A stretch of DNA of 64,000 nucleotides from Eledone cirrhosa (lineage: Eukaryota): positions 7,440,001 to 7,504,000 of the forward strand of contig OZ024758.1 in assembly GCA_964016885.1 (NCBI GenBank). The letters run 5' to 3'. The notes under the pieces are model-generated. The model made no database searches. It saw only the letters and a program-made list of their open reading frames with translations, and was not told the DNA's origin. The position numbers and the translations under genes are program-made. Every line of letters starts with the position of its first letter. Within the stretch, counting starts at the first letter, position 1. Below, piece after piece: positions 409 through 62,872 of the stretch.

Positions 409-497
409 CGTTCAACACTGACAAAGGAACGCTATACTAGTTTCAAGCTTATTAGCTATCGTCAGCAACGTATACCTTCCTGCCAGATTGTTGAACG
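409..497 (-). ncRNA. Type I hammerhead ribozyme motif with long extended stem I
   Basis: Minus strand reads acgttg-CTGACGA-t agct aata agct t-GAAA-CTAGT-A-tagcgt. Stem I is 6 bp with G-U pairs and extends to cgttcaaca/tgttgaacg. Stem/loop III is the palindrome ACTAGT. Predicted cleavage after GUA (position 435). Confidence 0.75.
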
Positions 498-524
498 TAT
501 ATGTGTACAATATATAGTATATAG

Positions 525-637
525 TGTAGTAGTAGTGGGAGTAGGAGTAGTAGTAGGAGTAGTATGAGTAGTAGTAGTAGTAGTAGTAGTAGTAGTAGTA
601 GGAGGAGTAGGAGGAGGAGTAGTAGTAGGAGTAGTAG
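525..637. repeat. (GTA/GGA)n trinucleotide microsatellite
   Basis: Direct reading. Confidence 0.9.
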
Positions 638-729
638 AATATCGGTGGACGTGGAAAAGGAAAACAGTGCTTAATCAGGTAAGAGAGCTGATATATTATA
701 TATATTCTGTTCATACATTGGAATAAAGC

Positions 730-965
730 GTTTTCAGGGCATTTTAAGCTTGGCAGAGCCCATCCCTCTCTATGTCTAAATACAGCTGATTTCTTCCAGA
801 GAAGGATAGAAAGTGCGAGTGAGAAAGTGAGAATGGGGTAGAATCGACCACAGTATTAGACTGGTACTTTTTTATTAACTTTAAAAGGATTTGAACTCAG
901 AAAACAGAGAGCTGAAACTAATACGGCAATGCTTTCCATCCGACGTTCTAATGACTTTGCTAATT
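730..965 (-). mobile_element. Degenerate SINE (family 1, long-tail variant)
   Basis: actggtacttttttatt...ggatttgaactcag matches the family-1 core; tail resembles 51040-51130 and 54720-54830. Confidence 0.55.
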
Positions 966-2149
966 CAATGTCTACATTGTAAATGCCTTTTGTTATTTAA
1001 ATGCTAGATAAATTATACCGATCCTACATGTTATCTACGAGTAACCCTATAGAATTAATTATTAAAGTATTCCACATACAATTGCGAAATACTCTTCAAC
1101 GTTTCTAACGAAAGCAACAAACCTATTTTAGAATTATTTCGTTGGCTTTCTTTTTTACTATATTTTATTTCCTTAATATCTATTCCAAGATTTAATACTG
1201 AAGATTTAATGTTTTCGACCCACAGTGTAAAATATTCATTACAAAATCTCGAGTAGAATTTATTTGTATTTTCATTTTCATGTTTACACATAAAGAGCTG
1301 TTATAGCAAAAGTTTTACGAATGAAAACTTGACCAGAAGTCTTTGAAAACATTGCTAGATCAAGTATGCAACTTCCGACTATATAAAGTGAAGTACTTCT
1401 AAAACCCTTTTCTACTCAATTGCTTCTACTTAACTTGTAATTATCTCTCTTGTTTCCTTCAGAATTCCTCCTGTAAGTTTACAGTTTGACTTGAAGGGGA
1501 AGTGGTTGACTAACAATACATTTAATATGCACACGTAGTTCCTACCTACCAGTATTTAGTCTTGCTGTAGCTCGTTAAATTGATAGACTTAGTAAAGTAT
1601 GTCTGGGTTCAAATCACGCTGAAACCAGCTTTGTCTTCCCTCTTATTGGGGGTAAATAAATAAATAACCATTCCAGTACTGGTGGTGGTGTGGGGAGGGT
1701 CGATTATCTTTTTACTCTGTTACTCTGTTACTCTGTTACTTGTTCCAGCCGACAGGCTGAGACCATGCTGGGGCAAAACTATTCTCTTTTTTTTTCTTTC
1801 TGGATTATACCTAAATACAAGGGATTAGCTTGTCGCACAGTGTTGCTGTGTCGCGTTGATTCGACTTACGAATTACATTAAGAATACACGTGTCTATGAA
1901 ATAGCTAGTCGTTTACAGGTTAACTTTACGAGTAAGAAATCTTTTGTTTGAGAAACTGAATGCTCATGGCCGTGAATTTATTGTTTGTTTACATTTAAAT
2001 ATGTATCTCTCTGCTACTAACATTCACCACTAGTGACTGGCGTTCTGACGAGACTACTGACGTACCTATGGGATGATCACAAATTAAAATACCCATAGCG
2101 AGACTTGTCTATGCTAATCATACATAAAAATACTGCATAGTTCTACTGT

Positions 2150-2915
2150 TAACATGTGCGTGTGTGTGTGTGTGTGTATATATGTATAATCAAATAATAT
2201 ATATGTATTCATATATATAATGTATATGATGTAAATATATATATATATATATAACGTTATAATGTAAATATATATTAATATATATTTACATTATATCGTT
2301 TCATATGTATGTATGTATGTATGTATGTATGTATATATATATATATATATATATATATGTGTGTGTGTGTCTGTGGGTGTTATAATGTAAATATATATTC
2401 ATACACAGACACACACACACACACACACATATATATATATGTATATATGAATATATATTTACATTATAACGTTATATATATATCTATATATATTTACATT
2501 ATATATGATACATTATATATATATGAATACATATATATATATATATATATATTTATATGAATACACACATATATATATATATATATATATATATATATAT
2601 ATATATATATATATATTTATATGAATACATATATATATATATATATATATATATATATATATATTTATATGAATACATATATATATATATATTTATATGA
2701 ATATATATATATATATATATTTATATGAATATATATATATATATATATTTATATGAATACATATATATATATATATATATAAATATATATATATATATTT
2801 ATATGAATATATATATATATATTTATATGAATACATATATATATATAAATATATATAAATATATATATATAACGATTGGTATATATATATATATATATAT
2901 ATATATATATATACC
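2150..2915. repeat. Compound (TA)n/(CA)n microsatellite with a repeated tttatatgaata unit
   Basis: Direct reading. Confidence 0.9.
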
Positions 2916-3139
2916 AATTAGTGGTAATTATTTTTCTATTAATGCTCTGTTAATTACTCCTGCCATTATCATCAATTAGTCAAGTGCTAGATAATTGTTG
3001 TTTAGCAGTAAAATTGTACCTGAATTAGGTGATAGGGTGGAGGGCGGAGGGTGTCTTATCATGTCTGCTCAGGGCCGCCTTGGGCTAAATAATAACAGGT
3101 GAATAGCAATGTGAAACAGAGCAATGATGTTAGTTCAGA

Positions 3140-59916: not shown

Positions 59917-60766
59917 ATCCTTTGCCGTTACTGATAGAAGATAGAGATAGAAGATAGAAGATAGAAGATAGAAGAAGATAGAAGATAGATAAGTTCCTGG
60001 AGCGGAGTAAAAATAATAAAATAACTGCAGCTAGAAGACGGTAACATTAATTACCAAACAACATGTCTTTCTACACACAAATCGATTGATCTTCCTCTAT
60101 TTGTCGTCTGGTTTTAATAAGTACCACTTATCAAATGTATCAAATATCTCTCTGCCTTTAGAAATATATATATATATATATATATATATATATATATATA
60201 TATATATATATATATATATATATATATATATATATATATATATATCCCTACACACTCTCCCTCTCTCTATATGTGTCTATCTATTTATCTATGCTCTTTC
60301 TCTCTCTCTAAAATATATATATATGTATATATATATGTATATATATTTGTGTGTGTGTATTGTGTGTATTTGTATATATATATATATATACAATATAAAT
60401 GTGTGTGTGTATATATATATATGTATGTATATATATAAGTATGAATGATTTATTGGCATAGGATTTTAAAAAAACCTGTATATATATATATATATATATA
60501 TATATATATTGTATATTTAGCGATAGACAGTATGTTTAAGAACAAACATTTGAAATCCTTTAGCTATAAATTTTGGAAGCTGATGACTAGAGTCATCTGG
60601 CGGTTTCCGGCAGAAGCAGGAGCGAGTAACTGTCGACGATTGTCGTTTCTTATTCTGATCCTTATCAAAAAAGTAGTCCCTTAACCTGCTCTATGCTGGA
60701 ACACTCAATGAAAGCGAAAACAAACACTCACACACATATATATATACACACACATATATATATATA

Positions 60767-60902
60767 TATAAGGAAAAAAGATGAAATCGAAAATGCAACT
60801 GGTGTCTTTTTTAGAATATTTATGTGAAACTGGTAAAGGAACCAAATAAATATTCTTAAAAAGACTCCAGTTGCATTTTCGATTTCATCTTTTTTCCTTA
60901 TA
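60767..60902. repeat. ~57-bp-arm palindrome embedded between (TA)n tracts
   Basis: tataaggaaaaaagatgaaatcgaaaatgcaactgg...ccagttgcattttcgatttcatcttttttccttata; spacer gtgaaactggtaaaggaaccaa. Confidence 0.9.
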
Positions 60903-61519
60903 CTTTCACTCGTGTAGGACACCTCGTTTTCTTTCATTTTGGAAAAACCCTCATTTTCTAATATATATATATATATATATATATATATTAATTCAAAATA
61001 TTAACAAAAATAGACATTCGTGTGATCAAGTATATTTTATTATACATATTTCAGAGGTACTGAGCTATCTTCAACAGTATGTTCTCATCAGATAAAATAA
61101 GATGATGCATGACATACCCTGACTAAGTACATGGTTAAGATTCAGTCATGGCAGTGAATAAGATATGACAAAACTCAATATTTATATATGTATGTATGTC
61201 TCTCTTTCACTTAATTTCGAGTACATTTTTCACCGACCACATTCGTGGTGGCAAGGAGGCAAAAGAAAAGAAATTGTCATCCCTTTCGCAAGAATGTTTT
61301 GTAAATTTTGAAGGTGCCAGCTATCGCAGCCATTTGTAGTCTATGAATTAGGGAGCTTCCCGCTTTGTCCACAAATCCAAGTTCAGTTATATGTACGTAT
61401 GTATGTATGGAAATACTTGGTTTGGCGCCCGAATGCGCGGTTAGCCCACGGGGAATGAGCGAACCCGAGTTTTTATAATATATAATATAATATAAAATAA
61501 AATAATATATAATATAATA

Positions 61520-61710
61520 TAATTGTTTCTACTTTTGGCACAAGGCCAGCAATTACCCAGTGCATTACTGGTACTTTATTTTATCGACCCCGTAAAGATG
61601 AAAGGCAAAGTTAACCTCGGCGGGATTTGAACTCAGACCATAAAGGGCCGTAACTCTTTGCTGCAAAGCATGGCGTCCGACCCTCTACCGATACTGCCAA
61701 TCCACCGCCT
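61520..61710 (-). mobile_element. SINE family 1, full length, inside an (ATATA)n array
   Basis: Match to the reference copy. Confidence 0.9.
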
Positions 61711-61714
61711 TTAC

Positions 61715-62255
61715 ATAATATAATATAATATAACATAATATATAATATAATATAATATAATTGTTTCTATAATATAATATAATATAATATATAATATAAT
61801 TGTTTCTATAATATATAATATAATATAATATATAATATATTACAACTACAATATAACATAATACAATACAATATAATATAATATATAATATAATTGTTTC
61901 TATAATATATAATATAATATAATATATAATATATTACAACTACAATATAATATAATATAATATAATATAATATAATATAATATAATATATAATATAATTG
62001 TTTCTATAATATAATATAATATAATATAATATATAATATAATTGTTTCTATAATATAATATAATATAATATAATATATAATATAATTGTTTCTATAATAT
62101 ATAATATAATATAATATATAATATATTACAACTACAATATAATATAATACAATATAATATAATATAATATAATATAATATAATATAATATAATATAATAT
62201 AATATAATATATAATGTATTACAACTACATATAATATAATACAATATATAATATA
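61715..62255. repeat. (ATATA)n pentamer array with recurring attgtttcta and ttacaactac inserts
   Basis: Direct reading. Confidence 0.9.
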
Positions 62256-62665
62256 AATAAGATAGATAATATGACTATTTGATAAGAGTTTCAATGAGGA
62301 CATTGTGGCGAGGGATTGTATATTAGTATCGAGGGAATATTGTAAAGTTCCTATTATGAATATATAAGTATGTGTTAGTGTGTTGCAGTAGCTGTGCGTA
62401 TTTGTAGAATATAGGTCTATGATTGTACAAGCAGATATATAGATAGTACATCTACATAATAGGAAACAGGACCAGAGTAAAGGAGGCTAATATTTTATCC
62501 AAAAATCGATAACTTATAAATATCAGATAATTGTAAGATATAATTTATATTTATACACACACGCACACACACACGCACGCACACAAACACACACACACAC
62601 AAACACACACACACATATATATATATATATATATATATATATATATATATATATAAGTATATATA

Positions 62666-62872
62666 ACGAAGGAAATGTGGTAAGGAACCAGATGGACCAT
62701 AACGCACCAAAGTACTCAATACTTAGGGTAGTAGAGTGGGTAATAGAAACGAGTAGGACCCCGACGGCTGAGCTCAAGCCGTTTCGACGGCTAATTCTGG
62801 ACTAAAATGTTAGTCCAGAATTAGCCGTCGAAACGGCTTGAGCTCAGCCGTCGGGGTCCTACTCGTTCCTAT
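62666..62872 (-). mobile_element. Family B palindromic element, best-preserved copy
   Basis: 63-bp arms 62743-62805 / 62810-62872 with one mismatch; tail is the reverse complement of 35455-35530; (TA)n on both sides. Confidence 0.8.

Follow-up and report, generated by a model that had tools for sequence, protein, structure and literature searches.

We analysed 64,000 nucleotides (nt) of the Eledone cirrhosa genome (assembly GCA_964016885.1, contig OZ024758.1, positions 7,440,001 to 7,504,000; hereafter the window), in which short islands with hammerhead ribozyme motifs lie between (TA)n tracts. We interpret these islands as the 3' ends of Hydra- and Neptune-type Penelope-like elements (PLEs) and partial units of two non-coding retrozyme families; Penelope reverse transcriptase (RT) and endonuclease probably inserted them all into (TA)n. 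We put the probability of this reading at roughly 85%. It is built on the identity of the families and their links to coding sequence, on two Hydra-type families (A and B) with intact open reading frames (ORFs), and on non-coding units in tandem, fixed ends (two per family) and flanking TA repeats.

The window is 33% GC with many TA and CA microsatellites, in a genome of 3.0 Gb. It was scanned with a type I hammerhead descriptor (stem I of at least 4 bp, CUGANGA, stem II, GAAA, stem III, UH) in strict and relaxed forms, each compared with 200 shuffles that left simple repeats unmoved. The strict form matched seven motifs (shuffle mean 0.02, maximum 1), at 429-471, 11480-11530, 30498-30581, 35123-35171 and 38504-38563 on the minus strand and at 11539-11591 and 44667-44713 on the plus strand. 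Nine matched the relaxed form (mean 0.01, maximum 1), which alone accepted 46376-46411 on the minus strand, with a 2-bp stem II and a GUU triplet, and a weak additional match at 9006-9044. The bare CUGANGA core was not enriched (26 copies versus 20.2 ± 4.1 after shuffling); the enrichment belongs to the full hammerhead fold. Eight of the nine intact motifs listed in the initial annotation, a reading of the letters alone, passed, seven of them strictly. The ninth, 34948-34979, failed both forms, its stem I being just 2 bp long. No copies of the 9006-9044 match or of the cores at 2045 and 60580 were found among the genome loci compared, and these three are decayed or unexplained.

An untargeted genome sample (22 stretches of 10 kb at round-number coordinates) gave 16 matches in 220 kb, with a shuffle mean of 0.07; a further 80 kb, from eight stretches nearby, held 3. 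The previously estimated density of about one motif per 8 kb fits the window (one per 7-9 kb); the genome sample has about one per 14 kb. Chance matching in AT-rich DNA would agree with the unenriched bare core and with the silence of Rfam at its cut-off in the window. We give it practically no credence, as the full fold far exceeds the shuffles (9 versus 0.01 in the window, 16 versus 0.07 in the sample) and stem I shows paired, two-sided changes between subfamilies (AUUC/GAAU versus CUUC/GAAG; GUUG/CAGC versus GAUG/CAUC). The motifs are real.

No Rfam family reached its gathering score anywhere in the window; below the cut-off, Hammerhead_3 reached only 11-14 bits at 11496-11574. An E-value scan of the window produced 467 matches, and the 150 listed were microRNA and small nucleolar RNA models on simple repeats, which we rejected. 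Elsewhere in the genome, RF00163 had 18 matches above the cut-off, in another family. The family at loci L051-L068 carries a canonical, RF00163-scoring type I hammerhead and has 5'-truncated and inverted copies with two ends about 100 nt apart.

The suspected association with (TA)n was borne out: 24 of the 28 matches in the window and the untargeted stretches have (TA)5 or longer within 150 nt, compared with 27% of 7,080 background positions (p = 5e-9). So was the palindromic character of stem/loop III. The 379 descriptor matches across the loci compared contain 32 distinct stem-III strings, of which 10 are perfect palindromes, a result to be read knowing that the descriptor by itself imposes one to three pairs in stem III. 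For 20 of the 22 commonest stem/loop III strings, all but the two shortest, the self-duplex is more stable than the monomer fold.

The islands had been described as unique-looking, with unrelated stem sequences. On the contrary, one family accounts for three of the eight listed sites, and exact marker matches in the genome number between 1,156 and 52,348 per family. These sizes count matches on both strands rather than insertions, and reversed-pattern controls gave 0. The idea that all sites are ORF-less and non-autonomous also failed, while the proposed link to Penelope held: long copies of six of the eight sites continue upstream into RT and/or GIY-YIG coding sequence, and only two sites belong to non-coding tandem units. 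On these comparisons, the six are best described as 5'-truncated 3' ends of coding PLEs, four from the Hydra clade and two of Neptune type. Inspection of the 136 frames of at least 90 amino acids in the window revealed no PLE ORF there.

Family A (islands 11465-11672, 35104-35334 and 44532-44735) has 10,477 exact 28-mer matches, and its longer copies have upstream sequence in common. Family B (islands starting at 35359, 38770, 46700 and 62660) has the largest count, 52,348 exact 24-mer matches. Both have full-length copies, labelled here by locus, in which RT and GIY-YIG are encoded together, the kind of long copy that the initial annotation suggested looking for. L073 of family A consists of an end repeat, a 713-amino-acid ORF starting from ATG, a 3.66-kb untranslated region (UTR) and a second end repeat. 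L203 of family B has a 719-amino-acid ORF and direct end repeats 3.1 kb apart, with an inverted copy in front. The element lengths (about 6.0 kb for A, 3.1 kb for B) exceed the <3 kb of the Hydra clade, a figure that is typical and not defining (PMC8557442; comparisons here and below draw on parts of the cited papers).

In each family, one ORF encodes an RT (YRDD) followed by a C-terminal GIY-YIG domain (YIG). Pfam scored them weakly, with GIY-YIG at E=0.019 for A and no match for B. The marks of the Hydra clade appear at residues 38/37 (RWR), 116/117 (DKT), 566/572 (CxCx5C), 666/670 (CxxC) and 694/698 (CxH) of the A/B proteins, and the CCHH motif is absent from both. The hammerheads sit in the end repeats, insertion is into (TA)n, and TA-type sequence follows within 8 nt at 70 of 72 family B and 40 of 65 family A ends. 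We assign A and B to the Hydra clade on the basis of ORF layout and motifs. The two proteins are 49% identical. Among 8,000 candidates scored, 1,404 relatives reached E≤1e-30, the best 120 at 38-54% identity, and a GIY-YIG profile run over the genome gave 10,597 first-look candidates, of which the 150 scored were all above the cut-off.

The family B copies in the window are truncated 3' of the core. The hammerhead of full family B copies has a U3-A8 core (UUGAGAA, UUGAUAA or UUGAAAA), with a long stem II (53 nt) in L203 (3500-3590), L199 and L200. CUGANGA descriptors miss the family because of this core; in practice, searches of that kind overlook the family with the largest marker count.

In L269 and L274, a Hydra-type endonuclease end and shared landmarks of the UTR lie upstream of the family C end (38475-38632; 5,065 exact marker matches); no intact ORF of this family was found in the loci examined. 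A 619-amino-acid frame in L273 was considered as its coding partner and rejected: it is part of a different Hydra family that has a hammerhead of its own, and the C end there is a separate insertion. Of the families with listed sites, A has an intact ORF, as does B, and present-day autonomy is shown for those two families alone.

The 3' UTR of family A contains a 1.9-3.0 kb TA/TG array, in which 91-93% of steps are TA, AT, TG or GT. We compared five UTR copies from four places (L069, L070, L073 and, twice, L075; in L073 the array region is 2320-5960 on the minus strand). Four landmarks occur in identical order in 5/5 copies, each with 25-41 runs of (TA)6 or longer, and the array therefore belongs to the element. 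Family C has a similar but shorter tract (L269, L274), with other elements nested inside it in L274.

The Neptune-type ends are likewise linked to coding sequence. Upstream of ends of the 34891-35067 type by 1.4-1.6 kb, L072 and L076 contain RT/GIY-YIG sequence with a CxxxRCxxC linker. For the 46294-46510 family (3,572 exact marker matches), a screen of 60 loci found a broken Neptune-type endonuclease about 0.6 kb upstream at two distinct places (L244 and L337). RT and GIY-YIG frames lie 1.1-1.4 kb upstream of the 60771-60960-type end in L119 and L120. Motifs of the Neptune kind (sought as a CX2-5CxxC linker and CCHH in a C-terminal GIY-YIG after RT) can be seen in all six loci, and the copies are broken for the first two families. 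By these motifs we call the three ends Neptune-type, a label under which either Neptune or Nematis would fit. A 4-kb inverted pair of the 46376 family in L275, considered as a single insertion, proved to be two independent ones. Long frames at L119:3308-6121, L121:2274-5561 and L129:4143-5573 represent Neptune-type (938 and 1096 amino acids) and Penelope/Poseidon-type PLEs. Judged by such frames and motifs, at least three PLE clades with young copies appear to share this genome.

The remaining two listed sites lie in head-to-tail units with periods of 420-450 and 483 nt, each unit with one type I hammerhead, in arrays of 2-10. The 158-497 family (ribozyme listed at 409) has 9,789 exact 32-mer matches, with arrays of up to five units among the first 100 matches listed; the 30319-30656 family (30498) has 1,156, a 483-nt unit and arrays of up to 10. 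In dimers of the two units, the longest ATG frames encode 75 and 44 amino acids. In the 25 loci read, no coding link was found upstream of the 409-family ribozyme; what lay there was the preceding unit, unrelated DNA or an arm in inverted orientation. Both islands can thus be classed, from their sequence organisation, as partial units of metazoan retrozymes lacking long terminal repeats (non-LTR retrozymes). A third tandem retrozyme family, with a 467-469-nt unit, loop III ACUAGU and two-armed arrays, was seen at L072:8552-9997, L074:3227-6418 and L077:2231-3430, and L120 holds a 459-nt tandem of yet another.

Downstream of the predicted cut, copy ends fall mainly at two distances, and the expected multi-copy families with conserved boundaries were found in the form of two end positions per family in back-to-back pairs. 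Such inverted arms, which the initial annotation had also noticed, are frequent (for example, fold-back 11465-11672). One arm is short and the other long in 18/18 family A pairs (28/94 or 14-20/82 nt past the cut, by subfamily), 20/21 family B pairs (19/102 nt; the exception reads into the ORF) and 5/5 family C pairs (43/107-111 nt), together 43/44 for the Hydra families. The inverted arms could instead have arisen by self-priming or template switching of one complementary DNA, and not by priming from both DNA ends. This has been suggested for inverted PLE structures with junction palindromes (PMC3846280), and many fold-back centres here are short palindromes. One start site alone, however, leaves the different fixed end of the second arm in 43/44 pairs unexplained, as it does unequal arms with non-palindromic centres, and we see self-priming as a minor possibility.

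Alternatively, all islands could be self-standing short non-autonomous ribozyme elements, resembling short interspersed elements (SINEs) or miniature inverted-repeat transposable elements (MITEs), derived from short masters. Most copies are indeed tiny, several fold-backs are perfect, two families are truly non-coding, and some short fold-backs could be transcribed and then copied again. Short masters would share their centres, yet fold-back centres vary between copies, with 7 nt to 6.5 kb between cores, and the ends run unbroken into ORFs in long copies. This explanation is largely refuted for six of the eight sites and very improbable overall.

The retrozyme arrays bear the same PLE 'tail' footprint, with two fixed ends, one per arm. 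The first pairs scored fit the short/long rule in 1/2 and 3/5 cases. A larger set came from 20 longer stretches, chosen because the match lists showed an array or an inverted pair there, some loci being re-used. Here, 10/14 pairs of the 483-nt retrozyme (77-84 with 172-193 nt; spacing 108 nt) and 4/6 pairs of the ~430-nt retrozyme (194-217 with 273 nt; spacing 59 nt, 214 versus 273) fit, and most array ends adjoin (TA)n. The arrays might also be satellite DNA derived from PLE end repeats and amplified at the DNA level, by unequal crossing over or rolling-circle DNA, without mobilisation through RNA; a recent preprint proposes such a route from PLE ends (10.64898/2026.07.22.740005). We think this unlikely: the loci are dispersed, most ends have TA flanks, the arms lie back to back and the two fixed ends are separated by 59 and 108 nt, all of which resembles PLE insertions, and the units do not match the PLE ends compared. 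Two-armed insertion was also considered for an abundant ~190-nt SINE-like repeat and found no support, 45 exact end motifs in 364 kb yielding 0 diverging pairs. At 17335-17433, the window has a fold-back with mismatches of the 3' end of this repeat between (TA)n runs, PLE-like in shape.

We propose the following mechanism for insertion by PLE enzymes. The GIY-YIG domain would cut inside (TA)n, and each DNA end of the break would prime reverse transcription at one of two fixed RNA sites downstream of the ribozyme. Synthesis would mostly halt after 50-400 nt, producing back-to-back arms, one with a 59-108-nt longer tail. The hammerhead would outlast truncation because, in the PLE families, it is positioned 15-110 nt from these putative start sites. 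We predict that the ribozyme, as a dimer through the palindromic loop III, divides tandem precursor RNA into units. In fold-back copies a long hairpin would enclose and inactivate it; the predicted fold of 11465-11672 is a single long hairpin (-120 kcal/mol) with both motifs buried. Retrozyme RNAs would be cleaved into single units, probably closed into circles, and then copied in trans by PLE enzymes, and their multi-unit arms could come from copying round the circle, the simplest account, or along a linear multimeric transcript. It is the common two-end footprint that leads us to PLE enzymes acting in trans on retrozymes.

Several points weigh against this interpretation. Hammerhead cleavage was dispensable for insertion in vitro by the PLE PAc (PMC11167929), and eight of nine Xenopus retrozymes failed to cleave, one of nine cleaving (10.64898/2026.07.22.740005). 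As monomers, just 3/9 window motifs have a hammerhead fold within 0.3 kcal of the minimum. Six of the 20 retrozyme pairs are off the short/long rule (one has a mis-scored arm and one has two short ends), the short and long classes were defined after the single-end counts had been seen, and the loci were mostly first matches on contig 1. The coding sequence recovered for family C and for the Neptune-type families at 34891 and 46294 is broken or partial. Finally, the retrozyme units had no match to the end repeats of 14 PLE loci, a small share of the PLE families, the lone hit being a separate insertion. Minimal PLE hammerheads also had low activity in published tests (PMC4209133).

Known biology, in the form of non-LTR retrozymes and truncated PLE ends, explains the motif population. 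Earlier publications already cover retrozymes, scattered PLE hammerheads, their pairs on opposite strands, and Hydra elements that target (TA)n in Octopus. Whether such elements had been described in this lineage, a question left by the initial annotation, is answered in part by Hydra-1_Obim of Octopus bimaculoides, a 2,507-bp, (TA)n-inserting, hammerhead-bearing Hydra PLE listed in a supplement (PMC8557442, Craig et al. 2021). Like A and B, the Hydra clade in that study has RT and GIY-YIG in one ORF, RW[K/R], DKT and CxCX5C without CCHH, an end hammerhead, (TA)n insertion and inverted 5'-truncated copies tailed at one end. This last arrangement is a known PLE structure (PMC8557442, PMC3846280). 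Family A differs in its length of about 6 kb versus <3 kb, because its 3' UTR carries the TA/TG array. Other differences are the tails (63-83 nt here versus 30-40), the U3-A8 core of family B and end copy numbers of 10^4 or more. The Hydra-1_oBim hammerhead has other stems in a comparison made by eye, pointing to different families.

Cervera and de la Pena (2014; PMC4209133) described the U3-A8 core, scattered single hammerheads and pairs on opposite strands 100-700 bp from each other, and attributed them to truncated PLEs. Their minimal metazoan PLE hammerheads share with ours a palindromic helix III, an extra base before stem II, and U3-A8 and 2-bp helix I variants, but several families here have long stems II and III. 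If about one per 14 kb holds, the E. cirrhosa genome has roughly 10^5 motifs, versus 2,000-9,000 per genome in that study with another descriptor.

Non-LTR retrozymes were defined in coral, mussel and axolotl (PMC7229834, Cervera and de la Pena 2020), and a PLE origin has been argued for vertebrates and four invertebrates (Li, Clavereau and Pollet 2026, 10.64898/2026.07.22.740005). The parts of the 2020 paper covered here mention neither octopus nor inverted arrays (the word 'inverted' occurs 0 times). As in these metazoan retrozymes, our units are non-coding, arranged head-to-tail, with one type I hammerhead each, a GC content of 37-40% and PLEs alongside. Unlike the published ones, they combine 420-483-nt units with two-armed arrays and two fixed ends in (TA)n, and they do not match the PLE ends compared, whereas 24/57 Xenopus retrozyme families match Repbase elements (10.64898/2026.07.22.740005).

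The closest experimental parallel is PAc Poseidon of Anolis (Frangieh et al. 2024, PMC11167929), for which two internal RT start sites, a tail between them and extension of both target strands were reported in vitro. As proposed here, the tail is delimited by two start sites, each target strand is cut and extended, targets are AT-rich and a hammerhead lies upstream. PAc Poseidon belongs to another clade, and its start sites are 7 nt apart (from the quoted stem-loop numbers) and within the ORF, while the putative sites here are separated by 59-108 nt and lie upstream of the ATG in A and B.

For cephalopods, 235 Rfam hammerheads were counted in giant squid (PMC6962438), and 31 recently active PLE families are listed for O. 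vulgaris in a paper whose text, in the parts covered, does not mention ribozymes (PMC13282606). A literature search that covered subscription journals thinly and lay outside Repbase and Dfam found nothing on retrozymes of cephalopods, on a Hydra UTR filled with microsatellites or on retrozyme arrays with PLE-type ends. Neither the 1.9-3.0 kb TA/TG array in the family A 3' UTR nor the PLE footprint of the retrozyme arrays was met in the literature searched; the O. vulgaris repeat library (PMC13282606) and the supplements of the preprint (10.64898/2026.07.22.740005) may already contain these families.

The footprint gives structural support to a PLE-retrozyme link until now based on co-occurrence and end-repeat similarity, and the intact Hydra ORFs with mapped start sites put trans-mobilisation within reach of the existing in vitro PLE assay. 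A PLE carrying a multi-kb TA/TG array is also a possible route of microsatellite spread in a very microsatellite-rich genome. A wider proposal, to which we give somewhat less than even odds, is that two-ended insertion at ~10^5 sites is common to autonomous Hydra PLEs and unrelated non-coding ribozyme RNAs. Two reverse transcriptases would prime from the two ends of a (TA)n break at two fixed RNA sites and, in retrozymes, run round an RNA circle made by the hammerhead. With kilobases of its own TA/TG target carried in the UTR of family A, PLEs would in that case contribute to the microsatellites that serve them as insertion sites.

The islands of the window are described below with their identity to the best longer genome copy. 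The retrozyme island 158-497 (minus strand), listed earlier as 409-497, is 0.8 of a ~420-450-nt unit (329/336 to a unit of the 5-copy array L206). Its hammerhead at 429-471 has loop III ACUAGU and a predicted cut after 435, and the island stops against (TA)n at the family's long end, ~273-277 nt past that cut. The other retrozyme island, 30319-30656 (minus strand), is 0.7 of a 483-nt unit (328/338 to array L303), with stem III ACCGAUCGGU in its hammerhead at 30498-30581 and a predicted cut after 30503.

Three family A fold-backs, with arms on both strands, were found. At 11465-11672, two 3' ends lie back to back (136/136 to the L073 end repeat over 11539-11674), with hammerheads at 11480-11530 (minus) and 11539-11591 (plus) and (TA)n on either side; the short arm stops 28 nt and the long arm 93 nt past the predicted cut. 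A subfamily fold-back at 35104-35334 (101/115 to the L073 end) retains an intact hammerhead at 35123-35171 (minus); its opposite arm is cut within the core, and the ends lie 20 and 82 nt past the cut. The fold-back at 44532-44735 is older (92/110 to the L073 end), with a hammerhead at 44667-44713 (plus) facing a decayed arm.

Family B is represented by a plus-strand 3' end with a short inverted arm at 35359-35533 (126/140 to the L203 end repeat), in which the ribozyme is reduced to its 3' half (GAAA, stem III, UC); a decayed plus-strand 3' end at 38770-38940 (83/105 to the L203 end); a minus-strand tail fragment at 46700-46805 (78/84); and a fold-back on both strands at 62660-62872 (139/147), with both arms truncated 3' of the core and ends 102 and 19 nt past the cut. 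The two-armed family C end at 38475-38632 (both strands; 113/119 to L269) has the hammerhead 38504-38563 (minus) in its short arm and the last ~35 nt of the long tail in the other.

The first Neptune-type 3' end, at 34891-35067 (plus strand; 162/176 to the L072 end), has its core at 34950 with a 2-bp stem I. The second, at 46294-46510 (minus strand; 165/183 to L244), contains the weak GUU hammerhead at 46376-46411, and a decayed relative of it (~80%) lies at 14690-14810. The third is a fold-back on both strands at 60771-60960 (128/138 to L120), and no canonical CUGANGA core was seen in the end of this L119/L120 family.

Further fold-back islands without a visible ribozyme core lie at 36830-36990, which has (TA)n flanks and a one-sided tail, 43338-43421 and 19039-19086; these are probably ends of further PLE families. 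A tandem array with a period of ~22 nt occupies 26472-27350, and another, with a period of ~70 nt and 98-99% identity, occupies 43602-44258. A fragment at 6531-6927 is presumably the RT C-terminus of an RTE-like long interspersed element.

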